A stretch of DNA of 64,000 nucleotides, taken from NCBI GenBank assembly GCA_021613535.1, contig CP075492.1, positions 14,643,205 to 14,707,204 of the forward strand. The letters run 5' to 3'. Shown here one piece after another: positions 16,442 to 64,000 of the stretch. The translations under genes were made by a program, and so were the position numbers. Positions within the stretch are counted from its first letter, which is position 1, and each line of letters begins with the position of its first letter. This DNA is from Adineta vaga. Lineage: Eukaryota; Animalia; Rotifera. A model generated the notes under the pieces. It did not search any database, was not told the origin of the DNA, and was given only the letters and a program-made list of their open reading frames with translations.

Positions 16442-17389
16442 CTCTTTGGTATAACCGACCAAAGTTTAGTACGTGTGCATCATGGAAACCAAACGGCATA
16501 ACTTTCGCAAATGAAACTATGCTTGGTGGATTTCCTCATGGACTTTTTGTCGACACAAACAACACTATCTATGCAGGTAGCTGCTACAATAATATGATTA
16601 AAGTATGGGCCAATGGTAGTTTAACTTTATTGAGAACTATTACAAATGGTTTATTTAGACCCTTCAGTCTCTTTGTATCGATGGGTGGTGATATCTATAT
16701 CGATAATGGCTTTTCGAATGGTTCGAGTTGACAAGTGGACATTGAATGCAACTAATGGTGTAAGTGTCATGAATATCAGTGAAGCTTGTCATGGTCTTTT
16801 TATTGACACCAACAATTCCCTTTATTGTTCTTTGGAAAATTTAAATATGATAGTCAAGGTTGATCTGAACAAGAATTCCACGACACCAACCAGAATTGCT
16901 GGTAATGGTACCGCTGGATCAACATCATCACTGCTTAGTGCTCCGTGGAGAATTTTTGTTGACATAGACTTCACTTTGTATGTGGCAGATTCTAAGAATA
17001 ATCGCATTCAACGTTTCGATCTTGATGCATGGAATGCAATAACTGTAGCAGGAAATAGAGCACCTAACACTATCTCACTGAATTGTCCAACTGGAATCAT
17101 ACTAGATGGTAACGGATTTTTATTTATTATGGATACTGATAACTATCGTATTGTTGCATCGAGTTCTGATGGATTTCGATGTGTAGTTGGATGTTCACAG
17201 GTTGGTGGATCAGCACCGAATCAATTGTATCATGCTCGTTACATGGCATTTGATACGTATGGTAATATGTTTGTAGCTGACGATGACAATCATAGAATTC
17301 AAAAGTTTGTTCTTGCATCAAATTCTTGTGGTACGTCCATTATTCATAGTAGATTGAAATTAAATTTTACGTCGCCTTATGTTAAATAA
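16442..17389 (+). CDS. NHL-repeat beta-propeller protein, partial model (5' exons unresolved, apparent 1-nt frameshift near 16723)
   Basis: NHL blades (GLFVDTNNTIYA, NNRIQRFD, NHRIQKFV) lie in two overlapping frames (ORFs 16519-16731 and 16646-17389). A blade reads ...GDIYIDNGFSNG|RVDKW across the frame switch. An acceptor at 16440 precedes the first exon. A GTACGT donor at 17331 and a candidate terminal TM exon at 17418-17512 are also present. Confidence 0.5.
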
Positions 17390-31057: not shown

Positions 31058-31898
31058 TTATTTCTCGTCAGTTTTTGACACCAAAAAATTACGGCTAAGT
31101 AGGCAATGTGGAACAAAGAAGCTACTATCCTTCCGGATATCATTGAGATAAGTAAAATGTTCATCGGGTCCTAAGATAACTAATTCGGGTCCAAAAACAA
31201 TTCTTGATTGTTTATTTTTATAATCATAAATTTGAACAACTTCATTTTGTGGAACACAATACGTGACGACTTTCCATCGATCACGTTTTGTTGTTTTTGC
31301 ATTTGTATTATTGGAATTGATATATCGATTAACTAATATATCTGCTTGAAGGAATCCTTCAATTTGTAATGGCAAATCTTTTTCCCATAATTCTTCATGT
31401 TCTGTCAGTAAATAAGTGTTGCCAATAATTGCTCGAACACGACCTGTTTTCGTATCACGTACATAGATACCTTCATTTTCGTCTAGATCATAGAAAAGAG
31501 AATATTAGACATATTTAATAATCTAAAGAGGCGTAATCTACCTAATGGTATCGCTTTTCTTCGTAATAACACTTCAACTTGTGTCGGAGGAATATATTCG
31601 CGTGGTCCTCGAAGAAGCCATCGATCACCTTCAATGACAAAAAATTAATCATTGAAATCAAACATATATTTACGAATTTACCTGCCATCCGTGTTACTTT
31701 ATCAATATCATCTTCAAATGATTCTGTACATCGAAGAATAAGACCTTCATCTTCTTCCAAGATATATATTTCTTGAATACCTTTTTCTAATTGTTCATTC
31801 GGTTGTAAGAAGAAGGATTTTTCACCGATAATTAACTTCTTCTTTCCTAATTGATTCTTTCCATCAACTTCAATAAAAAAATCATTATTATATAACAA

Positions 31899-31934
<36 letters not shown>

Positions 31935-32945
31935 TACCTCCAACTGGATTTAATATGACACAATATTGTCTCGAATTTAAGACTGTAATATCAATAGTCT
32001 TAATAAGTTCTTCATAGACATTTAAAATATGTGTTTCTGTTTGTTCGGATGTGATTAACCATTCATCTCCATTATTTCGTGTTTGACTAAAATCATCTGT
32101 AAATGTATTCAACGCACGTAAATGCAATGCTCTTTTATTCGTTAAGATAAAAGCATCTTCAACATTAACAACTGTTTCATGTGCCAATGGTGTATAAGCA
32201 CCTGGTTTTTTCACTAACCACTGTTCACCTGTTACACGACGCTGACCAAGACGATCGATAAGTTCTTTTTTCGCACTTAATTTTATTGCTTGATTTGGAC
32301 CTATAATCGTTGCATTGATCTGTTCTTCAATCGTTACTTCTTTACGTGGAATATAAGTACCTTAAAAATATACAAACAAGTTTTCAATCGTTTATTGTAT
32401 AGATAATAATAATGATCTACCTGGTCCTTCGAACAACCATTCATCACCTGCTTTTCGTTGTTCACTATGATCATCAAAATCAAGAATAGCTTTTAATCGT
32501 AAAGCTGAATTAGCTGCAACATATTTCAATGGTGTGACCGGCTAGAATGTGATCATTTTCAAAAAGTTTATCTTCTCAATAATAGACATAAACATACTTG
32601 TTTTAAAACTTCACCAGGATATAAAGGAAACGGTTCTTGATAATCATCATGCAATCGAATATTTACATTCGCATGTGATAATTTAATTTGTCCATTTTTA
32701 TCAAATTCGACTTGTCCTATTTGATTTTTAATCACAGGATTTTCCACAATACAATAATGTCTCGGTGGTATTGTAATCATTTTTTCTGGCCCAAAACAAA
32801 TCGTTTCATTATCTTGTTTGAAAAATATCTTCGGTCCAATTTCTAAACGTGTTACACTTATATTCTGATCTAATACATGAATATAATAAAATGGTGGAAT
32901 ACGATAAATAGGACCAGTTTGGGATGAGATATTTTTCGATGACAT
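31058..32945 (-). CDS. MVP: Major vault protein, repeat-domain-only (C-terminally truncated) copy, 6 exons
   Basis: Exons are complement(join(31058..31482,31542..31628,31682..31867,31938..32360,32421..32541,32598..32945)), about 529 aa. There is strong MVP identity: [110 protein letters not shown]. The frame ends at TAA after [15 protein letters not shown], where vertebrate MVP continues into the shoulder and cap-helix domains. Confidence 0.8.
31903..31930. repeat. (TA)n microsatellite inside MVP intron
   Basis: About 14 TA units. Shorter (TA)n runs also occur near 7717-7736 and 8573-8588. Confidence 0.9.
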
Positions 32946-33195
32946 ATTGTTGGAAGAAAACTAAATTCACTTGCTAACTATTTATAACAAACAATTGTGC
33001 GATAGTTGTGAAATATTTTTATTGAATCATCGCAATGTAGGCGCGTTATTGCACAATCAACATAGACGCACATATCATGATTTTCAAAGGACATATTTGT
33101 TTTTCTTTCAACACTCGCAGCAAATGTCCTTTTATTTTCTATTAATAAAAGCGGAACTAAAAGAAGATCAAACATTTGTTTTACAGACTATCGAA

Positions 33196-35255: not shown

Positions 35256-36388
35256 ATGGCAAATCTTGAAAATAAGGACGACTTTTCCAATTCATCATCA
35301 TTGCTTGTTATATCAAATCCTCCAATCCTTGTATTTTTGTATCGGTATGGATTGAGTTTCATCTTTTTCTTAGGTTTTATCGGTAATCTAGCAAGTGTAG
35401 TAACATTTCTACAACCAACATTACGTGTTACTTCGACTAGTTGTCTTTTCTTGATTTTGGCGATACTTGATACGATCTTTTTAATCGTATCGATTTTTGA
35501 TTATGTTGAAGTTGGTTTGATTGAAAAACCCATATTAATGAATATCTACGATGTTCTATGTCGATTTCGTTGGTTTTCAAAAGGATTTATACAATTTTGT
35601 TCGGCTTGGATTTTAGTACTCATTGCAATAGATCGTTGGTTACGAACACGATATCCATTCAAAGCAAATACATGGTGTATACATCGAAATGTTGCTATAG
35701 TTGTTTCATTTATTCTTATCATTGGCATTGTTTTAAATGGCCATATGTTAAGTGTTCAACTCTTCGGTAGTTTAATGCCAGGTATTGCAACATCAGCATG
35801 TGGACCTGCAAAGTCTTCTAGTTCATATGCTAATTTTTATCTTTCTCAATGGCCTTTTCTTCAAGTATGAGCGGAGAGTAATTTCATTCTCGGACATAAT
35901 TTATTTATTTATATTTTAGGTCGTTTTTATTTCGTTGATTCCTGTTTGTATCATGCTTTTCTGTAGTTTTGATATTTATCGAATCATTCAAAAGAACAAA
36001 ACTCGTATTCAACCGAATCAAACAAATCAACAAAAATTACATCGTCATGAACGTTTGAATCGGCAAATGTTAATCTTAATGACAACAAGTATTTTTATCT
36101 TTTTCATTACAACATTGCCTGTCAGTCTTCGACGAATTCTCGCTGCATATGAAATATTAATTGGAAAGGAGAATAAGATACAGCAAATTGTTATTGATAC
36201 CGGTATCCTTACGATATTATTAACATTCAATTATGCAGTAAGTACATCTAAAATACATTAAAAATAAGTTAATCTGATGACTTATAATTGAATAGATCAA
36301 CTTCTATATTCATTGTTTAACATCAAACTTATTTCGCAATGAATTTCTTCAATGTTTAAAATTCATCTTTCGAACCATGAAGTATTAG
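35256..36388 (+). CDS. Rhodopsin-like 7TM receptor (GPCR), 3 exons; paralog of 24362-25788
   Basis: Exons are join(35256..35864,35920..36237,36296..36388), with GTATGA and GTAAGT donors and introns of 55 and 58 nt. It has the DRY-like motif AIDRWLRTRYPF. The terminal exon encodes INFYIHCLTSNLFRNEFLQCLKF. Confidence 0.75.
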
Positions 36389-36826: not shown

Positions 36827-37945
36827 ATGATGATTTCTTCGTTTCTTGTCGTCTTCTTCTTCTTATTGAATCAATGTAGTTCATATCCGCAATTTGCTTT
36901 AAAGTTACAACCCGATGCATTACATCCTTTTCAAGAACCAGGCCCATTTGATATTCGTGGTCCATGTCCAGGTTTAAATACAGCTGCCAATCATGGTTAT
37001 ATTAGTCGTAATGGTATCACAACATTTGCAGAATTAGTTCAAATGCAGCAAGAGTTATATAATGTTGGTCTTGATTTAGCTCTTCTTTTAGCTACTATTG
37101 GTGTTGCTCTCGATGGTGATATCATTACAGGTAAATTATCGATTGGAAAAGAATCAACAGCTGTTCCAGGACTTCTACGTACACCAGGTGGATTAAATGC
37201 ACATAATAAATTTGAAGGTGATACTTCATTGACACGAAATGATTATTACTTAGCTAATGGAGATAATTTCAAATTTAACGGAACTTTATACGGAATGATG
37301 TTTGCTGAAGCACAAAATAATGGTGGCTTATATAATTGGAAAACAATGGCTGACTATCGTTATAAACGTTATCAACAATCATTAGCAGAAAATGGACAGT
37401 TTCTTTTTCCTCCCCAAGCTATTTTACTTTATGGAGCTGCAACATTTCTTTATGAGTTATTTCCAAATGGAACAGATAAATTACCTACAGAAACGGTGAT
37501 TTCGTCTTTTTTTGGTGCAAAACAAACAGAAAATGGAAAATGGGAAGCAGTATCGGAAAAAATTCCTTCAAATTGGTATAGAAGAGAAACACCATTTACT
37601 TTAGTTGATATTGCTATTCAAGTATTAAAACTGTATTTAGAACATATAGCTTTATTTGGAGGTAATACTGGTCGACCGAATTCATTTATTCTTGATCCTT
37701 TCCAATTAACATTGGATAAACAAAATATTAATGGAATTTTGTGTCTTCTATATCAAACAGTTTTATCTGTTGTACCATCACAAGTAGAAACACTGATTAC
37801 TTCACCTGTAGCTATACTCAATTTTTTAATAGCAAAGTTAGATCCAATATTTGGTGTACAATTTGGATGTCCATCGACTAGTTTTGATCAAGCAGTACCT
37901 ACACCATTAGAAAATATTGTCAAAAAAACAATTCTTCGTCGTTAA
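36827..37945 (+). CDS. Heme-thiolate peroxidase / unspecific peroxygenase (chloroperoxidase-like, fungal type), secreted, single exon
   Basis: A signal peptide is followed by the diagnostic PCP motif, RGPCPGLNTAANHGYISRNG (Cys codon 36965-36967), with acidic residues downstream (EHD region). It is intronless, and the first ATG is at 36827. Confidence 0.85.
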   Translation: MMISSFLVVFFFLLNQCSSYPQFALKLQPDALHPFQEPGPFDIRGPCPGLNTAANHGYISRNGITTFAELVQMQQELYNVGLDLALLLATIGVALDGDIITGKLSIGKESTAVPGLLRTPGGLNAHNKFEGDTSLTRNDYYLANGDNFKFNGTLYGMMFAEAQNNGGLYNWKTMADYRYKRYQQSLAENGQFLFPPQAILLYGAATFLYELFPNGTDKLPTETVISSFFGAKQTENGKWEAVSEKIPSNWYRRETPFTLVDIAIQVLKLYLEHIALFGGNTGRPNSFILDPFQLTLDKQNINGILCLLYQTVLSVVPSQVETLITSPVAILNFLIAKLDPIFGVQFGCPSTSFDQAVPTPLENIVKKTILRR

Positions 37946-38658
37946 TTTCAATGACATAACTGACATTGAAACTACAGTAGAATTTTTCTTAATCATTGCT
38001 TTCAAATAAATCTTTCTTTTTAAAACTTCACTCATACTCTCAAGTTAGTTGTTGCTAGTTGAAATGAAACATTTAAGTCACTGAGAAATGACAGTTTCAT
38101 CGCAATCGAATGATGGTTCGAGCAAATCTAAAGCAGCTGTTCCAGCAAATGTCACATAGTATCAATTTTAGTGCTCTTGCCAATTCATCGTAACGTAATA
38201 TGCATGTTCATACCCATACTATGAGATAGCTGTACTATGCCACTTGGCAGATTATTTGCAATCCATCGATAGGCAATAATAAAAATTTGATCTGTACTAC
38301 TGAAACTAAACATTACATCGGTACTAGTTCACGCATTTCTCGTCATCAGTATAACAATGATGCGAATAAAACGAAATGTTTTATCACAGTATTCGTTAAC
38401 TTGCGTTATCTGTTTACGACATATTGTATATATAGTTGGCTTGTATCAAGATTTTAAGTTTATTATAACATGAAAAAACGACCAAGAACGCTCGTAAAAT
38501 ATATCGATATAAGGTATGTCTGAGTACGAATATTCTTTACTTCTATATACAAGATTTATCTCCCTGTTTTGTTATCAGATCGAAAACGTTTGTCTTGAAA
38601 GATTGTTGTAAGAAAAGAAAGAAACGGATCATTTTCACTTTATCTATTAACAAAGAGA

Positions 38659-39818
38659 ATGTCGTTTTCTTTTATTGTCTTGATTCTATGTGCATGTATT
38701 CATTATGAAGTTCATGGTGTTCGTTGGACGGTTGAACAAGCCAATGCATGGTATGCTGAACAACCCTGGTATTTTGGTGCTAACTTTGTACCCTCAACGT
38801 CGGTAAATCAAATTGATATGTGGTTCACATTTGATACAACAACAATGCAACGCGAATTAGAATGGGCTGCTGGAATTAATATGAATATAATGCGTGTCTT
38901 TCTTCATGTTCTTTTTTATCAAGAGAATCCTGAAGTTTTCTATAAGAAAATGGATGATTTTCTCGCTATAGCTGATCGACTTCATATTAAGATTGCTTTT
39001 GTTCTCTTCGATGAATGTTGGCGACCAGATCCGGCTCTTGGTATACAACCAGCTCCTATTCCAGGTGAACATAATTCTCAATGGGTGCGATGTCCAGGAC
39101 AGGATTGGTTACTGGATGAAACCAAATGGCCTTTTTTAAAAAAGTCAGTATAGGAAACTTAAAATTAAATGAATTATTTCTATATTAAATTAGGTATACA
39201 ATTGATATACTGACTCGTTTTTCCAACGATTCACGAGTCATTTTCTGGGATCTATACAATGAACCACAATGTAGTAAACAAGTATCTACAGTCTTACCAT
39301 TACTTCGCGAAGTTTACGCTGCTGCTTTAGAAGCGAATCCTCGTCAACCTCTAACCTTTGGTATTTTACCTGAACCATTAAATGTTTCATTATCTGTATT
39401 TGAATTGGAATCTTCCGATATCATTACATTTCATAGTTATGAATCTTTATCTGGTACGATGAATCAAGTTGCTGAACTTCGTAAATTCAATCGACCATTA
39501 ATTTGTACTGAATACATGGCACGTACAGCTGGTAGTACTTTTCATACACATACTCGTTTTTTTCATCAGGAAAAAATCGGTGCCATCAATTGGGGACTCG
39601 TAGCTGGTAAAAGTCAAACATATTTTCCATGGGGATCACCTGTTAATGCACCAACACCACTTGTATGGTTTCATGATATCTTCAATGCTAGTGGTATACC
39701 TTATTCATCTTATGAAATTCAATTTTTTAAAGATTTAGGTGGATCTACTTCAACAAGATCTGCTTCCAATAGAATTACTATATTCTCTCTTGTTTTTTTC
39801 TTTACTCTGATTGCATAA
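38659..39818 (+). CDS. Glycoside hydrolase, GH5-like (clan GH-A TIM barrel), secreted with GPI-anchor-like C-terminus, 2 exons
   Basis: Exons are join(38659..39143,39194..39818), with a GTCAGT donor and a 50 nt intron. It has a signal peptide, the acid/base motif VIFWDLYNEP, and the nucleophile motif LICTEYM. The C-terminus is S-rich followed by the hydrophobic tail ITIFSLVFFFTLIA. Confidence 0.75.
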
Positions 39819-40098: not shown

Positions 40099-41611
40099 AT
40101 GACGACGAAAAATAATAAAATGCATTGTTTCAATTGTGGCAAAGAACGAGCCATATCCAAATGTACTGGATGTTTAAAAGATTATTGTTATTTTCATTTA
40201 ACTGCACATCGACGAGAATTAGATCGACAATTTGATCATATCGAACGAAATCGTGATATATTCAAACAGGATCTTAATGAACAAATACATCATTATAATC
40301 AAGATTTTCTTATGAAACAAATCAATCAATGGGAGGAAGATTCAATAAAACTAATACAACAAGTAGCTGATGAATGTCGAAATATTTTAATACATCATCG
40401 ACAACAATATTATGAAAAAATCAAATTAAATCTAAAAACTTTCACTGAACAAGTAAGCGAGATTCGACAAACACATGATTTTAATGAAATTGATTTAAAT
40501 CGATTTAAAGACAAATTTAAACAAATTCAACAACAACTTCATCCACCAATGAATCTTTCTCTTCAACATGAATCATGCATACCACTTGTACACAAAATTT
40601 CTCTTGTTATATCATCTGGTAAGACAAATACATTGAGTTTTATTGAGTCTATTGTTTGTTTTTTTCTTCTATTCAGGACAATCTATTTCCCCAAAGAATA
40701 TTGATAATAATACGAAATGGAAACAAAATGGAATAACAATTGCTGGTGGAAATGATGGAGATCATCAAATGAATCAACTTTGTTTTCCTCAAGGAATTTG
40801 TATTGATTATGATAATGATGATTTAATCTATATAGCTGATTATGAAAATCATCGTATTATTGAATGGAAATGTGGAGAAGCTCATGGAGAAACGATTGCT
40901 GGTGGAAATGGACGAGGATATCGTATTGATCAATTGAATAGTCCAACAGATGTGATTATTGATCGTAGAACAGATTCATTAATTATTTCGGATGCAGGAA
41001 ATCGACGGATAGTTCAATGGTCTCGTCTTAATCGAACATATTTACAAACACTTGTCTCTGATATCGATTGTATTGGTGTAACAATAGATAATCATGGAGA
41101 TTTGTATGTATCAGATTATATGAAGAATGAAGTTAAACGTTGGAAACAAGGTGAAATATGTGGAATAGTCGTTGCTGGTGGCCATGGAAAAGGAGATGCA
41201 CTAAATCAATTGAGTTGTGCAACTCATATTTTTGTTGATGATGATTATTCTGTGTATATTTCGGATTGTAATAATAATCGTGTCATGAAATGGATAAAAG
41301 ATGCTCAAGAAGGTATTATTGTTGCTGGAGGACATGGATTAGGAGATGATTTAAATCAAATATGTCTTCCTCAAGGATTAGTTATTGATCATTTGGGAAA
41401 TCTTTATGTTGCAGATTCATTAAATCATCGAATTATGAGATGGTTAAAAGATGCAGAAGAAGGTTCGATAATTCTTGGTGGAAATGGAGAAGGAAATGAA
41501 ATGAATCAATTCAATTGTACTGTAAGTTTAGTATTTGATCGACATGGAAATCTCTTTATTGTTGATTATAATAATCATCGAGTACAAAAATTTGATATTG
41601 AATCGAACTAA
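40099..41611 (+). CDS. B-box zinc finger / coiled-coil / NHL-repeat protein (TRIM-NHL-like without RING), 2 exons
   Basis: Exons are join(40099..40618,40677..41611), with a GTAAGA donor and a 58 nt intron. The B-box is CFNCGKERAISKCTGCLKDYCYFHLTAH, followed by a coiled coil and six NHL blades (NHRIIEW, NRRIVQW, NNRVMKW, NHRIMRW, NHRVQKF). Confidence 0.8.
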
Positions 41612-42225: not shown

Positions 42226-45200
42226 ATGGCTTTAGATACAGAACAAAATAAGAATTCAATCGCAGATTTGAATAGTACTACTAGCGAAAAAGAAATGACG
42301 ATGCTTGAGACTACGTATGTTTTACTTTCTTATAATTAATTTCACTTATAATTTGTACGACAAACTTTTCATAGAAATTTTGATGATAGATTAGGAACGA
42401 AATTCACCCTCGTAGCTATTTTAACATCCTGTGTATTCTGTGGCATTGCCATGTTTATTGGTATTCTCGTCATTTGTCTAACTACTTCCGAAAAACCAAG
42501 TAATTCATCTTTTTTTCAACTCCTTTTCTGGACATTTAGTAATAATATATTTACTTCTTTAGTACCAAAATGTACTTTAAATTTTGCTCCAACAATGACG
42601 AATCCAATTGAATACAATTATCGTCCACGATCTGTTGCCGTCGGTGATTTCAATCAGGATAATATATTGGATCTTGCTGTTGCTAATTCAGCTGTTGACA
42701 CTATTGTTATTTTCCTTCGACATGAAAATGGTAGTATAGAAAGTCCAATCACTGTTTCAGATGAATCTAATTCTATTCCATATATGCTCGCGGTTAATGA
42801 CTTGAATAACGACAATCGATTAGATATTGCAGTAGCAAACTATGGTACACATAGTATAGGTATTTTCTTCGGACTTGGAAACGGATCCTTTGAGAATTTT
42901 ACAATACTTTCTACGGGTACATCACGTCCTATTTCAATTCTTATAAATGATTTCAATAACGATACATTACTGGATATTGTTACTGTTAATTACGGTACCG
43001 ATAGTATAAACATCTATTTTGGGTACGGAAATGGTACCTTCTCATCACCTGTCACATACTGGCTAGGTTACGATTCTTTGCCATATGCAGTTGCAGCAGA
43101 AGATTTTAATAATGACACACAAATCGATTTAGTTATTGCTAATCATGGTACTAATAGTATCGTTATAATCTTTGGAGATATGAACGGCAATTTCATTAAA
43201 AGAACAACAATTTCTACAGGCTTGAATTCGCATCCCTATTCGATTGCAGTTAGCGATTTAGATAATAACAATTTGTTGGATATTGTCGTTGCTAATTATG
43301 GTACGAACAGTATAGGTATATTTCTTAACTATGGAAATGGATTCTTTTCAAAACAAAATACATATTCATTGGGTACTGCTTCACCATGTTGCATTAGTAT
43401 TGGTGATTTGAATAATGATCATCAAATGGATATTATTGTTACTAATCAAGGTGTTGATAATGTTGCTGTTTTTATTGGCTATGGTAATGGTACTTTTACA
43501 GATCCAAAAATGTATTCAACTGGTTCATTATCTACAATCTCACTTGCTACAGGTCATTTTAATAGTGATAATCGATTAGATATTGTAATCGTTAATAATG
43601 ATACGAATAGTATAAATATTCTATTTGGTTATTATGATGCGTTTCCAATTCAGCAGAAGTTTTCAGCGGGTCCTTCATCGTATTCAATAGATGTGGGTGA
43701 TTTTGATAACAACAATGAACTAGATTTTGTGACTAGTGATCAATTTGATGGAACGATACGCGTCTTCTTAGGACAAGGTGATGGTTCTTTTATACAGAAA
43801 ATCACTAAACTATTCAACTATTATCTGTTTTCTTTGTCTGTTGGTCATTTTAATAACGATGGAAGATTGGATATTGTCGTCACTGATTCTTTCGATAATC
43901 AAGTAACGATCCTTCTTGGACTTGGTGATGGATATTTTGAAGAGCCAAAGAAATATTCCGTTGGTAATGCTCCGTTCTTTCTAACTGTCAGTGATTTAAA
44001 TAAGGATACATATATGGATATAATTATCGCTAATGTGAATAGCAATGATATAACTGTACTTTACGGCTATGGCAATGGTTCTTTCAGAAATGACACCAGA
44101 TATAAAATGGGATCAGTACCGCAATCGGTAGTTGTTAATGATTTCAATAATGATACTCATCTAGATTTAGTCATTGTTAATGGTGGTAACGAAAGTGTGA
44201 GCATTCTACTTGGTTATAGCAACGGTACTTTTTCTGAAGAAACACGATACTCTGTTGGTTCTAATCCGTATAATGGAGCTGTTGGTGATTTTAACAATGA
44301 TAAACGACTAGATATTGTTGTTTGTAATGCAGGTAGTAACGATATAAGTATCTTACTTGGAAATGGTGATGGTTCTTTTCTGAAACAAATGAATTATGCA
44401 ACTGGTGATAGTCCTCGATCTTTAGCTATTGCTGATGTCAATAACGATGCTCGACAGGATATTATCGTTGTTAATACTGATGGTAATACAGTAGGTATTT
44501 ATCTTGGATATGGTAATGGTTCTTTTGAAAATCCCATGATCTACTTGCCTGGTTCTATGCCGCGATGTGTAGCTGTCGGCGATTTTAATTATGACGGTCG
44601 AATAGATATCGTAGTTGGTAATCTAAACGATAATCTAGTAACAGTATTATTTGGTTACGATCGTGGAGCTCTGGAAAACAGAGTAGCTTTCGCATCGGGT
44701 GAAGCTTCACGTTTACAATATGCTGCTGCGGGTTATTTCAATGATGATACATGGCTTGATCTTATTGTTGCTAATTATGGTACTAATGATATAGGTATTA
44801 TGTTCGGTCATGGAAATGGTACATTTGAACGTCAACTATTAATTCCAACAGGTTTAAACTCTGCTCCCAAATCAATCGCTATTCAAGATTTTAATAATGA
44901 CGGTCAACTAGATATTGCAGTAGCGAATTATGGTACTAATAATTTAGCTATGCTACTTGGTGATGGAAAAGGAATGTTTACAAATCAAGCAAATTATGAC
45001 AATAATATGAAGTATCCTCCAGCAACTATTATTGCTGCTGATTTCAACAATAATAAACGATCTGAAATTGTAGTCACATATGATAATACGGACAATATAG
45101 ATATATTTATTTCGTATGATACAGGAACTTTTATTTACGACAATTCTTATACAGTTGGTGTGCTTCCACAATATGCCGCTATTGGTGATTTTAATAATGA

Positions 45201-46758
45201 TATGCAACCCGATATTGTTGTTACTAATATGTGGGATGGTACGATCAGTATACTTCTCGGTTACAAAAACGGTACTTTTGCGAAACAAACTATATATTCA
45301 AGTGATTGGTATCCAATTTTTGTCGTTATAAATGATATCAATCAGGATACTATATTAGATATTATCGTTGTTAGTCGAGTTAAGGATACGGTAAATATTT
45401 TTCTCGGCAATGGAAACGGTACTTTTAGAAATCCAATTAAATATTCAACTGGTAGTGTACCATACTACATTGATGTTGGAGATTTCAATAACGATACATA
45501 TATAGACATTGTTACCAGCAATGCAAATAGTAATGATATGAGTATCTTATTAAATTATGGTAATGGTTCATTCAAAGATCAAATCAAATACACAACTGGT
45601 TCTCATCCTCAATCTATAATTGTCAGTGACATTAATAATGATCGACAACTCGATATCATTGTTGTCAATGAATTTGATAATGATCTCAGCATTTTTCTCG
45701 GTCATGGTAATGGATCTTTTCGAGAACAAATTCGATATTCAACTGGTACTAATCCAGTCTCACTTGTTATTGGTGATGTAAATAATGATACAAAATTAGA
45801 TATTGTTGTTTCTAATAGTGTTACTCATGATATAAGTGTTCTTATTGGATATGGTAATGGATCTTTTCAAAATCAAACAAGATATTCAACTGGTTCTCGT
45901 CCAGGATCATTAAGTATTGGTGATTTCAATAATGATACATTCCTCGATATTATCGTCACTCATTCAATTGCTAATAGTATAAGTGTTTTTATCGGATATG
46001 GTAATGGCATTTTTGCATATCGAATTACATATTCAACGAATGCAGGTCCGAATTCTGTTGTTTTTGCAGATTTTAATAACGATCATCGAATAGATATTGC
46101 TATTGTTTGTAGTGGTTCATCTAAAATTGACGTACTCTTTGGAGATATCAGTCAGTCATTTGTAAAAAAGACAACATTGATTAATGATAATGGATCTCGA
46201 CCGAGATCACTAGTTGCAGGTGATTTTAATCATGACAATCAACTAGATATTGCAGTTGCAAATTCAGGTACTAATAATGTGGGTATCTTTTGGGGTCATG
46301 GAGATATTTCATTTACAAATCAATATATCATTTCAAGTAATTATTCTCCATGGTCTATAACTGTTGGTCATTTGAATAATGACACTCTATTAGATCTTGT
46401 CGTTGCCAATTATCATAACGATAGTATTGGTATATTTTTTGCATCTACAAATAACTCCTTTTCTACACAATACATATTTATAACGGGTTCGAAATCGAAA
46501 CCATATGCAACTGTTGTTGCGGATTTTAATAATGATAATAGACAAGACATTATTGTCGCCAATTATGGCAGTAATGATGTAGGTATTTTTCTTGGTGATG
46601 GTAGTGGTTCATTTGCAAGTATAATGATTATTCCCGTTGGTTACGGAACTCTTCCGTTTTCTATCATCGTTGGTTATTTTGATAATGATCCTAAATTGGA
46701 TTTTGCTGTTATCAATGAAGGCACTGATAATCTAAGAATTTTCTTACAAACATGTTAG
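42226..46758 (+). CDS. Giant FG-GAP/VCBS-repeat beta-propeller protein, predicted type II membrane protein (~1.46k aa), 2 exons
   Basis: Exons are join(42226..42314,42375..46758), with a GTATGT donor and a 60 nt intron. It has a short N-terminal cytoplasmic segment, a TM (FTLVAILTSCVFCGIAMFIGILVI), and about 28-29 tandem repeats of roughly 48 aa (DFNNDxxLDIVVANYGTNSIGILLGYGNGTF...Y..G..P), consistent with four 7-bladed propellers. Confidence 0.75.
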
Positions 46759-47397
46759 AAACTTATTGTCTGTTTTTTATTCCGAATAAATTGATTAAAT
46801 AAATTCACAAGTCAATGAAATTCATTGAAATTATTAGATAAAATATGCAGATATTGTTGACATCTCATAAAAGTGAGGGAATTTTTGTTATAATTATTCG
46901 TATTTTGAGTCACGCATAGTACTTAAAAACGAAATAGATTATTGTCATTAATTGATTGAAGTCTTTTAGTCGGAAAATGAGGGGTTAGAATATAAATACT
47001 CTGTTGATACATCGAAACCTATACTCGCACACTCACCTTTATATCATAACAATACGGTCACGTGTTTTTTCTTTGTTTTCTTAATCGCAGTCAGTCATGT
47101 TACATATTCAAGTATCGAAGACATCATAATGGCTTTATTATATAACTAGTATACTCGCTCTTAATAATCGACAGAAATATTAAGTATGTATCGTGAAAAT
47201 GATTTGAAACTAATTTGTTTTTTACAGTGAATAAGAGATATTAAATGAAAGATCTCTAAATTTTATATGGATCTACTTTTTTAGTTTATGAATGATTAAA
47301 GACTCTCGTTAACAAACCAAAAAATTTTGCAAAACATTTGAATCTCTTCAAAAGAATTATTAGGCATTATAATTAATGAATTGTTTTTCTTGTAGAG

Positions 47398-47712
47398 ATG
47401 TCAAAGATAAACATACAAATCGGCAACGATTTAATTAAAGGAAAATCCGTTGGATCGAATCACTGGCAATTCTGGTTCAATGGAAAACAGTTTAGTATTG
47501 ATTCTCCCGATGCAAAATACGATACTATTGAAATACTAACAGACGGAGCTATTACTCTACAAGGAAAACAAATTCATGGAAATGTATGGAAAGCAGAACA
47601 TTCATTTTATGGATCTTCAGCATGGGGTACTATTTTTATACGATATACTTTAGAATTCAATACGGAATCAATGAAAACAACTGTACAAAGTGAAACAAAT
47701 GTTGATGCATAA
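47398..47712 (+). CDS. Small Cys-free hypothetical protein (104 aa), beta-rich
   Basis: ORF from the ATG at 47398, with no signal peptide and W/G/Y-rich segments (HWQFWFNGKQFSID, GNVWKAEHSFYGSSAWGTIFIRYTLEF). No family is recognised. Confidence 0.35.
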   Translation: MSKINIQIGNDLIKGKSVGSNHWQFWFNGKQFSIDSPDAKYDTIEILTDGAITLQGKQIHGNVWKAEHSFYGSSAWGTIFIRYTLEFNTESMKTTVQSETNVDA

Positions 47713-48432: not shown

Positions 48433-50003
48433 TTAGTGATGTAAAAGAATACTAATGCTATTCGAATAGAAATTTGCAACAATAATGTCTAGTTTATTGT
48501 CATTATTCACATCAGTTAATGTTATTGCAACAGGACCATTACCAACTGAGTAAATATATTGAGAAGAAAAACTGCCATTGCCAAGATTGAAAAGTACACC
48601 AACATTATTTGAACCATAGTTTGCAACAACAATGTCCAGTGTATAATCGTCATTCAGATCAGCTAACGCTACTGCGATTGGACCACTACTAACCGAATAG
48701 GTTCTTGAGTATTGAAATGAACCGCTGCCTATGTTCAATAATATTCCAATAGTATTCGAACCATAGTTTGCAACAATAATATCAGATTTATTATCACCAT
48801 CTACATCAGTTACTATAACTGCTCGTGGATTGTTTCCAACTGAATACATAGTCGAAGGATAAAATGTACCGTTGCCTTTGTTAAGAAGAATACCGATATT
48901 GTTTGAATAATAATTTGCAACAATAATATCGGGTTTATTATCATTATTAACGTCGCTTGTTGTGATTGAGATTGGATTGAGAAAAACTGGATATGAAGTT
49001 TCAGTAGAAAATGTCGCATTACCCATGTTCAGAAGAACGCAAACTGTGTTCGAATTGTAATTTGCTACAATGATATCGAGTTTGTTGTCACCATTCACAT
49101 CAGTTACTGTAACTGATCTTGGATAGGATACAATTGTATAAATGATCTGAGAAGAAAACGTGCCATTACCGGTGTTAAGAAGAATACAAATATTGTTTGG
49201 AACTGGACTTGCGATGACAATATCGACTTTATCATCACCGTTCATGTCGCCTACGACAGCTGTCATTGGATTAGTACTAGTTAAGTAGGTAATTTGATTC
49301 CGAAACGAACCATCACCTAAATTAGTAAGAACACCAATGTTATTGGAACCGTAATTAGCGACAATAATATCGGATTTGTTATGATTGTTTAAATCGATTA
49401 CTGCGACTGAATACGGTTCATAACCAACTTGATAAGACACTTGAGGGAGAAACATATCACTATTGTTATACACTAAAGAAATATCAGGAAAAACAAGTAA
49501 TATTCTTCTGTATTTCGAAACTTGTTGGTATGAACATAACGTGCAAGACTTACCAGTTGCTATCGTCGTTGCTATTGATGTTGACGAAGTTGACATGAAT
49601 TGATCTGTATTAGAGAAGTAATAGTAACAATAAACAACGTCGCTCGACACAAACAAGAGAGAAATAGATAGCTAATCGTTGCGATTATTTTCAGTAAAAA
49701 CTTACTTGATACTATTGATATTGATGATTGATTACTAAAGATATATGTGGCGTCGACATGAAATTCGATGACAATTGAATGATTCTTCAAAGAAAACAAT
49801 TGACATGTTTTATTCATTGAAAAATAATTTAATGCAAATATGAATTTATTTGATGCTCTAGCCATTTGACATATACATTCCTCTTTTGTTAGATTAACAA
49901 ATGACATATTTATATAATCGACCATTATATTATTCTCTATTTTACCGATAGATATCGATTGACTAGCAGAAAATAACGATAGAAGTAATAATATCCAAAA
50001 CAT
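48433..50003 (-). CDS. Secreted single-propeller FG-GAP/VCBS-repeat protein with N-terminal Cys-containing domain, 3 exons
   Basis: Exons are complement(join(48433..49472,49554..49604,49706..50003)), with GTAAGT donors and introns of 81 and 101 nt. It has the signal peptide MFWILLLLSLFSASQS, a roughly 80 aa domain with 4 Cys, a S/T linker, and 7 FG-GAP-like blades (DxNxDxKxDIIVANYGSNxIGIL). Confidence 0.7.
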
Positions 50004-50584: not shown

Positions 50585-51623
50585 ATGTCTTCATCAAACT
50601 CTACTCTTCCATCGATATCTTCGTCGGAAATTGTTCATCTGCAATTTATTTTACGATTAGTCGTTGGTATATTAGGTTTACCAATGCTCCTTGCTGGTAT
50701 CATTGGTAATACAATTAATATTTTTACTTTTATTAAATTAGGTTATTATCGAGAGAATTCTTGTTCACTTTATATTCTATCTCGATCGATTTTTGATTTA
50801 ACTCTTCTTATAACTGGACTTGGAACACGTATTCTAAGTCAAAGTTTTCAAATTGATTTTACATTAACAAATCATCTTTGGTGTAAATTACGTGTTCCTA
50901 TTATTTACATTAATACGTTGAGTTCCTATACATTTCTATGTCTTCAATCGATTGATGCATTTTTGGTTACATCATTATCCGTTTCTTTTCGACAGAAAAG
51001 TAATATACAAAGAGGTCGATATTTTCTGATTAGTTTTCTTCTTCTTTGGATTATTGAAGAATTACCTTATCTCTATTTTCAAGAATTAATTATCAGTTCT
51101 GATGGAACGAGTTTCATGTGTATAACAATCAATTCAACATATGCGAAATATCGAATATATTTTGTTTATCTTTTTCTAACGACGATTGTTCCACTTGTTC
51201 TAATAATTGGATTTGATTTTTTAACCTATCGACATCTACAAATGTATACACTTCAACAACAACGCCATTTACTTTCAATTCTTGCAAGACAAATGACTAA
51301 AATGACTCTATTTCATATAGCTGCTGTTTTTCTCTTTCAAACACCATTTGCTATTGCACAATGTTATTTCCTTACCACAGGACTTAGTAAAGAACCTATT
51401 CGAAATGCACAAGAACAAATCATACAACAATTTTTCAATATACTTGGATATGGCATCTATGCAGTAAGATGAAAAACTTTTCTTTTTCAATATGTATTCA
51501 ACTGTTGTTTGTATATAGACATCGTTCTATTGTTATTTTATTGCATCAAAACGTTTTCGTCAACAAGTATTCAATGCATTTTTTAACCATCGACAAGGCC
51601 AAAATCGAATACAACCGACATAA
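50585..51623 (+). CDS. Rhodopsin-like 7TM receptor (GPCR), 2 exons
   Basis: Exons are join(50585..51463,51519..51623), with a GTAAGA donor and a 55 nt intron. It has a 7TM profile, and the terminal exon encodes a helix-8-like ASKRFRQQVFNAFF. Confidence 0.7.
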
Positions 51624-51724: not shown

Positions 51725-52888
51725 ATGATGCAAACAGAGAATGTGTTTATTATTGCTGGAGCAGGCATTGGAGGTTTAGCAACTGCTTTAGCATTGCAAC
51801 AGAATGGATTTTCGTATGAAATTTATGAACGTGACATAGATTTTAATTCTCGTCGACAAGGTTATAGTTTAACTATTCAAAAGAATGGATTTGCAGCATT
51901 GAAAGAACTTGGTTTAGGTGATTGTGTACGAGAGATGGGTGCAGATTCTGTAATCGCAGGAACAGCTACATACAACAATTTGGGTGAAGTGATCTTTTCT
52001 AAATCTAAACGAAATAGGGATCGATATAATTTCAATAATTTTGCAGTACCACGACAATCTCTTCGTACATGTCTAATGAATGAATTAAAACCAAATGTTA
52101 TTCATTGGAATAAAGAAATTATTCGATATGAATCGTTACAAAATAATTCTCATCAAATTCGAGTTATCTTCTCGGATAATACATCCGTTGTTGGTCGTGC
52201 ATTGATTGGCTGCGATGGAGTTCGTAGTACAATTCGTAAACAAATGTTAGGTGATGATTTGAATTATCTTGGTGTATGGGCGATTAATGGTATTTCATCT
52301 CATCAACAGAATCCACTTCTTGTCAATAAAACTGTTCAGATGCTTGATGGAAAATCTCGTTTATTTATTAAACCATATTCTCTTCATAAATCTATGTGGC
52401 AATTGACTTTTCAAGTTTCGAAAGATGATCAAACTTACAATCAAAATGATTTAGAAGATTTATTAAATAAAGCAAGACATACTACGAAAGATTGGTATGA
52501 ATCAATTACAAAATTAATTCATGACACGTCAGTTTCAGATATTCGTGCTGGTCCAGTTTTTGATCGAGATCCATTGGAAATTATTCGCAAAGACGTCGAA
52601 TGTGTGACAATGTTAGGTGATGCTGTACATCCTATGAGTCCTTTTAAAGGACAAGGAGCGAATCAGGCATTGACGGATGCAGTTAATTTAGTAAAATTTA
52701 TAATGAAATATCAAGAAGAGAATGATGGCGTCGAAAAAGCTTTTCATGATTTTGAAAATGAAATGCTCATACGTTCAAAACGTTCTGTTTTACAATCAAG
52801 ATCAGCGGTAAAATTTCTTCATACTAACAATGCTCTTCTAAACACAAATATGTCTCAATTTATCAGTGGTAAACTTGTATTCGAATAA
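51725..52888 (+). CDS. FAD-dependent aromatic-ring monooxygenase (salicylate hydroxylase-like), single exon
   Basis: It has an N-terminal GxGxxG FAD fold (FIIAGAGIGGLATALAL) and the C-terminal FAD motif GDAVHPMSPFKGQGANQALTDAVNL. ATG at 51725, TAA stop. Confidence 0.85.
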   Translation: MMQTENVFIIAGAGIGGLATALALQQNGFSYEIYERDIDFNSRRQGYSLTIQKNGFAALKELGLGDCVREMGADSVIAGTATYNNLGEVIFSKSKRNRDRYNFNNFAVPRQSLRTCLMNELKPNVIHWNKEIIRYESLQNNSHQIRVIFSDNTSVVGRALIGCDGVRSTIRKQMLGDDLNYLGVWAINGISSHQQNPLLVNKTVQMLDGKSRLFIKPYSLHKSMWQLTFQVSKDDQTYNQNDLEDLLNKARHTTKDWYESITKLIHDTSVSDIRAGPVFDRDPLEIIRKDVECVTMLGDAVHPMSPFKGQGANQALTDAVNLVKFIMKYQEENDGVEKAFHDFENEMLIRSKRSVLQSRSAVKFLHTNNALLNTNMSQFISGKLVFE

Positions 52889-60822: not shown

Positions 60823-63800
60823 CTAAATATAACTAAAGCAATGATTTCTCCTACAGCTTTGTCGCCATTTTTTCATTGACTTGACAAATTTTTCTTTGTA
60901 CAGTGTTGATGGCAGAACGTACATGATAAAAATCAAAGTCGTAGGAATAAATGCCGTAAAATAACTCGAAACATATAACCAGGAGCTTTGAGATGCTTTT
61001 ACACATCGAAACAATGATGAAATAATAATAAATGGCAATGTGAAGATGACCAATAGCAGAGGACCAATAAGTAACGGTTTGTGTTGATAAACTTGCTCTC
61101 TAAGATGCTGACGGCGACCTTTATATTTTCGAGCTGCTGCTTTTCGACGAACAATTGTATAAATAATGAATAGAGATGAGAAAATATTGATAAAAAATGG
61201 TCCAAGCACATGAAGAAATGAAATTGCTGTTGTATAGATATATAAATTTGATGAATAAAGAGTAACACACCAGACACGATCTTCTTCAGTATCATCAAAT
61301 AAATCACGAGAAAAGCATTCATAAATATTTGAACCGATAAGTAATAATACTAAAACAATCACAATACATCGAGCAGCTTTGATACTATGTGTTTTATTGA
61401 AAGATATTCCTTTCGAAGTATTTATGGCACGTTCAATTGATACACAAGCATTCAACCAATTATTCATCCATGAACAAAATTTCAGTAAAGGTTCAATCGA
61501 CAAACATCCAAAACGAAGAACAGCACGATTTGTTTCTAAATTCATTTGAGAAAGTAAAACAAACCAAAATTTCATCATCAACACGGTAATAGTAATCAGT
61601 GAAGTGATTGACAACATTAAAAGATAAATGCCACATCCAACTACACGCGTATCTCGCCGAGAAAATGTAATTAATGAAAGAATACTATTGACTAAGCCAA
61701 TAACAAATAATATCATGGTAAAAAACATACTTAACTTAACCATTTCAGATTGATTACTTAGACGAATATTTGATCGAATTTCATATCGAAAGAGATCATC
61801 AAGTGTTAATCCTATTCCTTTCGCATAAAATTGACATTGATTACCAAAGAAACAATCAATACAATTACATATAGTTGTAAGTGGACATATTGGATGATCT
61901 TGTAAACATTGTCCATCATTGAGACAATGAACATTTTCTTTGCATTGAAAATCATGTTGATGATCAAATGCAAAACAATTAGCATGATGTTCTGTTGTAC
62001 ATAAACACATATACGATTCATCAAAGAAACATTTTAAATGAGGATTGTTTTGACATAAAGTATGATAATATTTAATTCGTTGAATTCTGAGTAATTTGAT
62101 TTGTTTAGAATCGAGAAGTTCATTAACAGACGGACATCGTCGAGTGGAATCGATTGTTGTTGAGATGTTAGATGTTTCCGATTGTTGAAGCACAGTCAAA
62201 TAATAGTTATTATTCGTTAGAATAAACACCATTTGAAATACTTGTTGGAGATAAAATGTCACATTTCTCTGCAGTGTAGTTATTTTTCTTAGTATTGTTT
62301 CGTGTGCTATTGGTGGCTCCCAGGGAATGTTTGAATAGATAAACGCTATCAGATATGATGATATTTTTCTATCATTGAGAGTGATATGTAACCGTGACGT
62401 TGGAGATTCACATCTTTCTCCTCGAAATTCTTCGGGACATAAACATTCATAACTAGTATCAACCATTCGTTCATCAGTAACAACGCACACACCATTATTT
62501 TCACAATAATTTATTGGACATGAATGTTTGAGCAAACAACGATTACCGAACTTTTCAAGAGGACAAATACAGATTGATCGATTATGTGCACGGTCAATAC
62601 AAATTGAATCAGATGAACAATCATCGCAATCAATTGAAATATGACACTGAGCACCAGTCCAACCTTTCTGACATTGACAAAAGAACTTTTCTTCATTTAT
62701 ATACTTCACACAGATACCATGTTGACATTGAAGAGAACACAAACCAGAATAAGCAATATGATTCGATCCCAAAGTTAATAGAACAGCAAGTCGGTTCACT
62801 GGCAGAAAATTGAAAGGAACTTTGAAATACCAACTAGCAAGATATTCCACTGAAACCTTATCATAAACATCAATGTGAATACTGTAGTTTTTTGAAAGAT
62901 GTTTTGGTCTTGTTGAATACGGAAGATATTTATCGAATGGTTGACCACATGTTATTTTAGCAATATAGATGATTTGTTCATACGATTGTATTTGTTGTTG
63001 ATCATTATCATCATCAATTAGTTTAATGAAAATAGCAAAAGTATGATATCGAATGATAGCTGATAATATTAATGTAAGACTCACTCGTTGATTCTGATAT
63101 TGACATTGATTTCCATAATAATTTGGTGGACATAGACAAATTGTAGTGTCATTTTCATTTCCTAACCAAAGACGCATGGGTGAACCACGTGTGCATTGCC
63201 ATGATGGAGTATAAACGTGTGAAAATTTTTGTGGTGCATCATCAGCAGAAGTGATGATATTATTTTCGACTAATGGACAGGTTTCAGATGATTCTAATGT
63301 GAATGGAACACGAGACATGGTACCAAAACGACAAAGAATATCTTGAACTTCAGTGAGATTATAATCAGTCCATTCTTCACATACGTCTGTATAATATATT
63401 TCATTATGTAAATCACATAGTATAAAAGGTTCGATACATCTTGCGTCATTCAAACAACGAAAACTATATGAAATTCCACTAAAGAAATCTGCTACTCGAC
63501 ATAATTGTGGTTCATCTATTCCGCCAAGACAATCAACAATGCCATTTCTCACTTCATGTGCTGGTATACATATCATTGTATAATTATAGGGTGACGTACA
63601 TTCAAGAAAACGATGAGAACAGTTCGATGGTCGACACTTTTCTTCATCTTTACCATTTTCACAATCCCAAAATCCATCACATCTTGTATAAATATTATTG
63701 CAAGGCCAATATTCACAATCACTTTCATCTGTATAATTTTGTCCATTGATTATTTCAGGTGAAGTATCAATCGTTTTATCACATATTTGATTGAAAACGG

Positions 63801-64000
63801 TATTATCGATAGTTTTCACCTCACTTTCTTCAAATTCACAACCATGTAGTTGAAGTATTGACGATCGACATCGACTTTCATTTGGACATGTAAAACGATT
63901 AGGCTCATTAAGTGAACAACTTAATTTAAAATCTTCTTCATCATCATGCAAGTAACAATCAATGATGTTGTCAGCAATTCGACGTGTTGAAATATATTTG
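60823..64000 (-). CDS. 7TM receptor with large EGF-like/LDL-receptor class A ectodomain; 5'-partial (continues beyond window)
   Basis: The ORF is open to the window edge at 64000. It has an LDLa module (CEYWPCNNIYTRCDGFWDCENGKDEEKC) and multiple EGF-like Cys patterns (CLCPPNYYGNQCQ, CQCQKGWTGAQCH, CLCPEEFRGERCE, CNCIDCFFGNQCQ). The C-terminus has 7 TM helices with SIERAI (DRY-like) after TM3. No introns were detected. Confidence 0.75.
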   Translation of the reverse strand, partial: KYISTRRIADNIIDCYLHDDEEDFKLSCSLNEPNRFTCPNESRCRSSILQLHGCEFEESEVKTIDNTVFNQICDKTIDTSPEIINGQNYTDESDCEYWPCNNIYTRCDGFWDCENGKDEEKCRPSNCSHRFLECTSPYNYTMICIPAHEVRNGIVDCLGGIDEPQLCRVADFFSGISYSFRCLNDARCIEPFILCDLHNEIYYTDVCEEWTDYNLTEVQDILCRFGTMSRVPFTLESSETCPLVENNIITSADDAPQKFSHVYTPSWQCTRGSPMRLWLGNENDTTICLCPPNYYGNQCQYQNQRVSLTLILSAIIRYHTFAIFIKLIDDDNDQQQIQSYEQIIYIAKITCGQPFDKYLPYSTRPKHLSKNYSIHIDVYDKVSVEYLASWYFKVPFNFLPVNRLAVLLTLGSNHIAYSGLCSLQCQHGICVKYINEEKFFCQCQKGWTGAQCHISIDCDDCSSDSICIDRAHNRSICICPLEKFGNRCLLKHSCPINYCENNGVCVVTDERMVDTSYECLCPEEFRGERCESPTSRLHITLNDRKISSYLIAFIYSNIPWEPPIAHETILRKITTLQRNVTFYLQQVFQMVFILTNNNYYLTVLQQSETSNISTTIDSTRRCPSVNELLDSKQIKLLRIQRIKYYHTLCQNNPHLKCFFDESYMCLCTTEHHANCFAFDHQHDFQCKENVHCLNDGQCLQDHPICPLTTICNCIDCFFGNQCQFYAKGIGLTLDDLFRYEIRSNIRLSNQSEMVKLSMFFTMILFVIGLVNSILSLITFSRRDTRVVGCGIYLLMLSITSLITITVLMMKFWFVLLSQMNLETNRAVLRFGCLSIEPLLKFCSWMNNWLNACVSIERAINTSKGISFNKTHSIKAARCIVIVLVLLLIGSNIYECFSRDLFDDTEEDRVWCVTLYSSNLYIYTTAISFLHVLGPFFINIFSSLFIIYTIVRRKAAARKYKGRRQHLREQVYQHKPLLIGPLLLVIFTLPFIIISSLFRCVKASQSSWLYVSSYFTAFIPTTLIFIMYVLPSTLYKEKFVKSMKKWRQSCRRNHCFSYI

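Follow-up and report, generated by a model that had tools for sequence, protein, structure and literature searches.

We analysed a 64,000-nucleotide stretch of Adineta vaga DNA (contig CP075492.1, positions 14,643,205 to 14,707,204; hereafter the window) and found that the forward-strand gene at 42226-46758 belongs, in well-preserved form, to a large bdelloid family of bacterial-type FG-GAP propeller proteins that is annotated in databases but unstudied. Taken together, the evidence makes it reasonably probable that this is an intact three-exon A. vaga gene whose 1469-amino-acid (aa) type II membrane product acts as a calcium-stabilised surface binding platform built from a bacterial-type module. 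The expansion of the family in bdelloids and the propeller fold were already known. New here are a second intron, the age and stability of the repeat array, a probable nested and closed ring topology, and the measured closeness of the propellers to their bacterial counterparts.

Gene structure

The features of the gene outside the repeat array are as follows.

42226..42314, +, exon 1: ATG and the first 29.7 codons (89 nt) of the predicted cytoplasmic tail, MALDTEQNKNSIADLNSTTSEKEMTMLETT; read directly from the sequence, spliced frame open
42315..42374, +, intron 1 (predicted): 60 nt, GTATG...CATAG; same position as intron 1 of the annotated A. steineri gene (locus L083)
42375..42499, +, exon 2: remainder of the tail and the signal-anchor transmembrane helix
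42403..42480, +, predicted transmembrane helix: hydrophobic segment FTLVAILTSCVFCGIAMFIGILVICL, aa 40-65; at the same place in homologues
42500..42562, +, probable intron 2: 63 nt, in frame, stop-free, GTAATT...TTTAG; placed by comparison with homologues
42563..46758, +, exon 3: 4.2 kb, intron-less, entire ectodomain; stop codon 46756-46758
42565..42621, +, N-terminal segment PKCTLNFAPTMTNPIEYNY: conserved Cys and a strand proposed as the missing outer (D) strand of blade 28
46785..46799, +, polyadenylation-signal motifs AATAAA / ATTAAA: 27-38 nt past the stop; motif match only

The initial annotation had read a start codon at 42226, a GT..AG intron at 42315-42374 and a frame open to the stop at 46756-46758, with a signal-anchor segment following the N-terminal exon; all of this was reproduced. 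The stop-to-stop frame, which opens at 42352, comprises 1468 codons, a length with a chance probability of ~1e-51 at this base composition. Its sole ATG ahead of the repeats lies at 42451, in the middle of the transmembrane segment, and exon 1 is therefore required. The guanine plus cytosine (GC) content of the gene is 32-33%, similar to its flanks, and that of the window 31.5%. The tail encoded by exons 1 and 2 gave only weak, chance-level Pfam matches.

The single-intron structure proposed at the outset is probably incomplete: whilst the intron at 42315-42374 was retained, a second, in-frame intron at 42500-42562 had very likely been missed. The 21 residues SNSSFFQLLFWTFSNNIFTSL, which span the interval between the transmembrane segment and the first conserved Cys, are missing from 23 of the 24 aligned homologues; the lone homologue with residues in this region is P0036, an unnamed protein from ENA. 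Furthermore, the annotated A. steineri gene (protein P0046, locus L083) possesses two introns, one approximately 10 codons ahead of its transmembrane segment and the other, of 70 nt, exactly between that segment and the conserved Cys. The absence of SNSSFFQLLFWTFSNNIFTSL from homologues and the A. steineri intron at the same point together argue for a three-exon gene and a product of 1469 aa, in place of the 1490 aa given by the single-intron model. The leader introns of the two genes thus lie at common positions, and the propeller exon is intron-less in both.

The repeat array

Exon 3 encodes 28 tandem units, or blades, of 48-51 aa each, in keeping with the approximately 28 units of FG-GAP/VCBS type described initially. 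In the line-by-line division below, the allocation of blades to propellers 3 and 4 is a proposal that is taken up in the following section.

42619..43674, +, blades 1-7 (propeller 1): 50-51 aa, mostly with a conserved NYGTN B-C loop; AlphaFold2 predicted local distance difference test score (pLDDT) ~85-95, four strands per blade
43675..44703, +, blades 8-14 (propeller 2): 49 aa, variable B-C loops; blade 14 ends in the atypical GYDRGALENRVAF, followed by a low-confidence hinge in both models
44704..45162, +, blades 15-17 (propeller 3, proposed first part): similar in type to blades 1-6; blade 17 with an atypical extended C-D hairpin; putative assignment
45163..46191, +, blades 18-24 (propeller 4, proposed insert in propeller 3): pLDDT 90-97, the most confident part of the model
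46192..46755, +, blades 25-28 (propeller 3, proposed second part): blade 28 ends after strand C in an invariant Cys (LRIFLQTC)

A Pfam scan of the product matched FG-GAP_3 (PF13517) in 23 stretches with 537.7 bits against a cut-off of 26.9 (E=2.4e-165), and FG-GAP on the same product with E=9.5e-54. In 23 of the 28 units the A-B loop, D-x-[DN]-x-[DN]-x-x-x-[DE], is complete, and no columns of the family are better conserved than its ligand positions; the presence of this loop agrees with the initial annotation.

The initial annotation had further described the repeats as highly identical at the DNA level, and had taken this as a sign of recent concerted evolution; it had also raised the possible collapse of such arrays in assemblies. 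None of these points was borne out. Pairs of blades are on average 58% identical in DNA (maximum 72%) and 37% in protein (maximum 59%), and Tandem Repeats Finder detected a single short two-copy stretch with 74-76% matches. The atypical blades 7, 14, 17, 24 and 28 each resemble their positional equivalent in Rotaria or A. steineri proteins more closely than any blade of their own protein. A Rotaria protein aligns with the window protein over 1296 residues with zero gaps, and the A. steineri proteins have an identical blade count, with atypical blades at identical positions. Judged by this divergence, by the matching of positions across genera and by the gap-free alignment, the array is old and positionally stable, recent concerted evolution is unsupported and assembly collapse is of no concern. 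That the array might instead be an assembly artefact, or a recently homogenised repeat of unreliable copy number, is suggested by its length and by its regular period of 147-153 nt; with blades that differ by at least 28% in DNA and an array shared in count and position with other species, we regard this as very improbable.

Fold and ring topology

Two AlphaFold2 models, built on 34-sequence alignments, together span the ectodomain. Blades 8-28 were modelled with a pLDDT of 88.4 and a predicted template modelling score (pTM) of 0.62, and the N-terminal segment with blades 1-17 with a pLDDT of 86.7 and a pTM of 0.74; in the latter, blades 18-28 were left out as an indirect test of topology. Both models are all-beta with four strands per blade. 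A Foldseek search with the 21-blade fragment returned as best matches DDB1 and SF3B3, each of which contains three seven-bladed rings, at template modelling scores (TM-scores) of 0.25-0.3. Blade counts among relatives are approximately 21, 28 or 35, on a rough motif count in which the labelling of blade types is noisy. In combination, the models, the triple-ring hits and these counts support the presence of four seven-bladed propellers. The four propellers originally envisaged therefore stand as four rings, but they are probably not simply consecutive, and one is apparently nested within another.

Rings were assigned from sequence landmarks, secondary structure and pLDDT. Two types of blade can be recognised: blades 1-6, 15-16 and 25-27 are of 50-51 aa and mostly conserve the NYGTN B-C loop, while blades 8-13 and 18-23 are of 49 aa and have variable B-C loops. 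Positions 7, 14, 17 and 24 are atypical; position 21 is not. Blades 17 and 24 possess unusually long C-D hairpins in the AlphaFold2 model, and such hairpins, together with the atypical character of these two blades, are expected where the chain exits and re-enters a ring. In the most likely arrangement on these models, blades 1-7 would constitute one ring and blades 8-14 a second, with the ring of blades 18-24 forming an excursion inserted into a ring composed of blades 15-17 and 25-28. Blades 15-17 were modelled with a pLDDT of ~87 in the presence of blades 25-28 and ~80 in their absence, with blades 1-7 remaining high; the second model, which lacks blades 18-28, thereby favours rings of 1-7 and 15-17 plus 25-28.

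The two ends of the ectodomain appear to be complementary. The segment PKCTLNFAPTMTNPIEYNY resembles the loop and D strand absent from blade 28, and blade 1 then follows at normal spacing; in the model without blade 28 this segment is disordered (pLDDT 44-50). The Cys that follows the transmembrane segment is kept in at least 90% of the aligned homologues, and the C-terminal Cys of blade 28 is invariant in 34 aligned sequences. These features suggest that the N-terminal strand and the conserved Cys pair close blade 28. The strand would complete the last blade, a putative disulfide between the two Cys residues would pin it in place, and the ectodomain would form a closed body held at the membrane by both of its ends. 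A closed, nested, disulfide-pinned ectodomain of four rings would be an architecture undescribed for FG-GAP proteins.

Precedents for chains with several rings come from another repeat class. A single chain folds into three seven-bladed rings in each of DDB1, SF3B3 and Trm734. The Trm734 chain builds a further ring before it finishes one already begun (PMC6847430), the path proposed here for blades 15-17, 18-24 and 25-28. These proteins are of WD40 type and cytosolic or nuclear, with ~8% identity and TM-scores of 0.25-0.3, and the likeness is one of architectural analogy only.

Relatives among bdelloids

A homologue search with a threshold of E<=1e-10 yielded 2185 homologous proteins among the candidates scored. 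The named proteins within the top 120 matches are all from Adineta or Rotaria, and several are titled 'FG-GAP repeat protein'. The nearest full-length relatives are 46-52% identical to the window protein and share its tail, transmembrane segment, Cys, 28 blades and ...QTC end; no protein with identity above 52% was found in a collection of 5.8 billion clusters. The features that unite the family are all present in the window protein, namely a tail, a single transmembrane segment and a Cys before blade 1, a blade number (28) that is a multiple of seven, and a truncated last blade with a C-terminal Cys.

The 'FG-GAP repeat proteins' of A. steineri, A. ricciae and Rotaria spp. (P0046, P0059 and P0021) are the closest parallels. 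Tail, transmembrane segment, Cys, 28 blades and the ...LQTC end are as here, the atypical blades 7, 14, 17 and 24 and the intron positions are the same, and nothing essential differs. The proposed type II layout of the initial annotation is supported by the conservation, in A. steineri and Rotaria relatives, of the same tail, transmembrane segment and Cys-bearing segment before the blades. Other bdelloid FG-GAP subfamilies differ in having ~21 or 35 blades, or additional C-terminal parts. In the Rotaria models P0021, P0062 and P0034, similarity ends before the last one to three blades and gives way to unrelated sequence at the C terminus; blades 27 and 28 and the terminal Cys are absent, and these are probably fused or mis-spliced gene models.

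The array had also been called unusual for a metazoan gene. This is true generally, but in bdelloids the family is very large, and FG-GAP is named among the expanded bdelloid families together with NHL, seven-transmembrane (7TM) receptors and others (PMC3846280). This passing mention among bdelloid expansions was the only one in the searchable literature, which held no study of the family and no experimental work on its members.

The top metagenome homologues were considered as bacterial sequences and rejected as such, since their contigs have 34-36% GC and carry either a 7tm_1 neighbour or an intron-split non-ribosomal peptide synthetase (NRPS), and are thus rotifer DNA. Two of them, L001 (ERZ12298641 scaffold_10743) and L002 (ERZ12298644 scaffold_26040), encode 1800-aa FG-GAP proteins; one has the 7tm_1 neighbour and the other has NRPS modules fragmented as if by introns. 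Some FG-GAP proteins of these loci are labelled 'predicted nucleotidyltransferase' or 'streptogramin lyase' at source. Prokaryotic gene calling on rotifer contigs thus deposits misnamed eukaryotic proteins in metagenome protein sets.

Origin of the propeller module

The origin of the propellers was examined against bacteria and archaea, each species represented by one genome, and against solved structures. The bacterial and archaeal scan returned 286 loci. Whole seven-blade propellers with 36-41% identity to a window propeller were found in Pyrinomonadaceae, Terriglobia, Blastocatellia, Chloroflexia and cyanobacteria, some of them on multi-Mb contigs, which agrees with the bacterial-type character that the repeats had been assigned. 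Fifteen tabulated bacterial loci span 36-62% GC, and the two that were inspected have an ordinary bacterial gene context, with a single propeller inside a secreted multidomain protein. By BLASTP, bacterial propellers score 190-240 bits against window propellers; comparisons of the window protein's propellers with one another and with the neighbouring paralogue (see below) give 168-278 bits. Single propellers of soil bacteria, the closest relatives detected outside rotifers, are therefore as close to the rotifer propellers as the rotifer propellers are to one another.

The likeness extends to the details of the repeat. The FG-GAP_3/VCBS propellers of Acidobacteriota, Chloroflexota, cyanobacteria and others have a blade of 48-51 aa, the DxNxDxxxD loop, the GxGxGxF turn and seven blades, as here; unlike the rotifer protein, the two bacterial propeller genes inspected contain no introns, no N-terminal signal anchor and no N- and C-terminal Cys pair. 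In addition, the VCBS supercluster is centred on prokaryotic proteins, with eukaryotic families as its satellites (Pereira and Lupas, PMC8023676). On the bacterial matches and their bit scores, the confinement of introns to the leader with an intron-less propeller exon, and the layout of the VCBS supercluster, we rate at somewhat better than even the chance that the propeller module was acquired from bacteria before Adineta and Rotaria split. Following such an acquisition, the module would have been joined to eukaryotic leader exons and then multiplied.

Vertical inheritance of an animal FG-GAP protein, such as a divergent relative of integrin alpha, ITFG1/LINKIN, ITFG2 or CRTAC1, is an alternative that we consider unlikely. 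CRTAC1 (9etn) was the sole protein detectable in a sequence search of the PDB, and the comparison as a whole covered bacteria, archaea and solved structures. The CRTAC1 match is nevertheless marginal (25 bits with a 1390-aa query, E=3e-5) when set against the ~190-240 bits of single bacterial propellers, and no integrin chain was found at E<=1e-3 in the same search. The satellite position of eukaryotic members within the VCBS supercluster also speaks against a vertical origin (PMC8023676).

Architecture points the same way. The head propeller of integrin alpha (Pfam FG-GAP, PF01839) shows structural likeness only, at 13% identity. Integrin alpha is a type I protein with one propeller, thigh and calf domains, a C-terminal transmembrane segment, a GFFKR-type tail and a beta partner, none of which the rotifer protein has: it contains no other Pfam domain, thigh and calf included, its sole hydrophobic segment is N-terminal, and it ends in its last blade. 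CRTAC1, ITFG2 and ITFG1/LINKIN have a single propeller within other architectures and topologies, as opposed to four propellers and an N-terminal anchor, and are of marginal sequence similarity, CRTAC1 being the only one found. LINKIN is a C-terminally anchored (type I) protein (PMC4275582). The predicted membrane orientation of the rotifer protein is thus opposite to that of integrin alpha and ITFG1.

Contamination of the assembly by bacterial DNA, which the bacterial identity of the closest non-rotifer relatives might suggest, can be dismissed with near certainty: the GC content of the gene matches its flanks, its two short introns are of spliceosomal type and lie at positions common to the A. 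steineri gene, rhodopsin-type G-protein-coupled receptor (GPCR) and NHL genes flank the locus, the contig is a 20-Mb A. vaga contig, and the best bacterial identity is only ~40%.

Function and alternative explanations

The predicted product is an N-in, C-out type II protein with a short cytoplasmic tail, one transmembrane helix and an ectodomain of 28 blades; no catalytic or signalling domain was detected in it by Pfam. An alignment of 34 relatives shows almost no variation at the four Asp/Asn ligand positions of the A-B loop or in the GxGxGxF turn. Variation is greatest in the five-residue B-C loop, at the residues on either side of the D-A loop Pro, and in the outer strand. In propellers of the integrin type, one face carries the A-B loops, which bind Ca2+, and the ligand-binding face is made up of the B-C and D-A loops. 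A DxDxDG motif in the A-B loop has been described for this superfamily (PMC8023676). The Asp/Asn loop of each blade most likely binds Ca2+ and would thereby rigidify the rings. Since variation within the family concentrates in the B-C and D-A loops, the ligand face of integrin-type propellers, we propose that the protein serves as a surface binding platform for adhesion, or for recognising an external ligand that may be a glycan or a microbial surface. It would be one member of a large and diversified bdelloid repertoire. Sugar binding has been described within the same VCBS supercluster for tachylectin-2 and the Psathyrella velutina lectin, in some cases with Ca2+ (PMC8023676); these are small, soluble, single propellers, unlike the rotifer protein, and are likened to it by membership of the supercluster.

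Several points weigh against this proposal or parts of it. Position 6 of the calcium loop is often not Gly, and Ca2+ binding is accordingly putative. The variability of the loops among paralogues may reflect weak constraint, and no signalling motif can be recognised in the cytoplasmic tail. The start codon and the two splice junctions are predicted, and the rings may alternatively comprise blades 25-28 with 1-3 and blades 4-7 with 15-17. The horizontal origin was judged against bacteria, archaea and solved structures only, with rotifer paralogues filling the hit lists, and the similarity to bacterial propellers may in part reflect a strongly constrained repeat consensus.

A mainly structural role is a less likely but reasonable alternative; instead of a specific receptor, the protein would then be, for example, a bulky glycosylated component of a coat or matrix on the gut surface or the syncytial integument. 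Such a role would account for the 29 N-x-S/T sequons in the ectodomain, for a tail devoid of a signalling domain and for the very high copy number of the family. However, the sequons lie largely within the structural GNG[ST]F motif, which is present in bacteria too, and a diversification focused on surface loops fits binding better than bulk.

It is improbable that the gene is an unexpressed or decaying member of the family. In so large a family some copies must be dying, and no identical or near-identical protein exists in the cluster collection, the best being the 52% relative noted above. The 1490-, 1469- and 1435-aa products were looked up exactly in the protein collection without a match, and eight further open reading frames (ORFs) of the window matched only in the case of a 104-aa ORF (47398-47709). 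This absence is uninformative, because eight of nine other window ORFs are also without an exact match. In addition, an open frame of 1468 codons persists in an AT-rich genome, the transmembrane segment, both Cys residues, the Asp loops and the atypical blades are all intact, and polyadenylation motifs are present.

A more specific form of the binding-platform proposal can be offered as speculation that we think rather unlikely to hold in full. The bdelloid family may be a rotifer-specific recognition repertoire derived from a soil-bacterial module, in which rings 1-7 and 15-17 plus 25-28 act as scaffold and the variable rings 8-14 and 18-24 as readers of microbial or glycan ligands. Reader rings would then differ in number among paralogues, and the family would be an immune-like one standing in for classical secreted lectins. 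A survey found such lectins to be few and unexpanded in rotifers (PMC8878817). That scarcity leaves room for another recognition family, and is only a lead.

The paralogue and neighbouring genes

As first noted, a smaller paralogue lies 1.7 kb downstream on the opposite strand.

48433..50003, -, paralogue, convergent: predicted exons 50003-49706, 49604-49554 and 49472-48433; splice sites placed by eye from GT/AG and frame

Its predicted product comprises a signal peptide-like start, MFWILLLLSLFSASQS, a Cys-containing region of ~75 aa with no Pfam match, a Ser/Thr linker and one seven-bladed FG-GAP propeller of exactly seven 147-nt units (FG-GAP_3 E=1.3e-58). Two 5' exons probably encode the signal peptide, the Cys-containing region and the linker. 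The last blade is without its outer strand and a strand-like segment precedes the first blade, both as in the large protein. Around the two FG-GAP genes, no terminal repeats or transposon-like flanks were detected other than the blades themselves.

Between the two convergent genes lies the 104-aa ORF mentioned above (47398-47712 with its coordinates in full, +), which is identical to UJR11412.1 (I4U23_015592, hypothetical protein, Adineta vaga), encoded on a contig of 20.35 Mb. It has no Pfam match and is the sole window product found verbatim in the protein collection.

Near the FG-GAP pair, genes of types that are usually non-animal occupy 36827-37942, 38599-39815 and 51725-52885 (all +); these are candidate foreign genes, typical of bdelloids. 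Such types include Peroxidase_2 (a fungal-type haem-thiolate peroxidase, E=2.8e-52) and a FAD_binding_3 monooxygenase (E=2e-20), and two ORFs show weak similarity to GH5 cellulase and GH2 TIM-barrel domains.

Five ORFs for rhodopsin-type 7TM receptors, members of another expanded bdelloid family, are present within the 64 kb on the + strand (1439-2389, 5124-6149, 20102-21124, 35256-35867 and 50585-51472). All except 1439-2389, which scores 24 bits, exceed the Pfam cut-off. There are also two NHL-repeat genes, 40099-41611 (+) and 16646-17386 (+). In the former, which immediately precedes the FG-GAP gene, an N-terminal ORF rich in Cys and His (CFNCGKERAISKCTGCLKDYCYFH, without a Pfam match) is apparently connected to the repeats by a short intron or a change of frame near 40640-40700. 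The window further contains a major vault protein gene at 31061-32960 (-), with Vault, Vault_3 and Vault_4 repeats, which short introns divide into several ORFs, and at 60826-63999 (-) an open frame with EGF-like domains of at least 1058 codons that runs past the window end.

Significance

For the window, the annotation is mainly settled as a real gene, very likely of three exons, for a four-propeller surface protein of 1469 aa. The inferred nested propeller assembly, closed end to end, would be of interest to structural biologists. More widely, a bacterial-type FG-GAP propeller has been amplified in bdelloids to give hundreds of membrane proteins in each genome. Should these proteins prove to be recognition receptors, they would be relevant to the way in which an anciently asexual animal rich in foreign DNA handles pathogens and surfaces.

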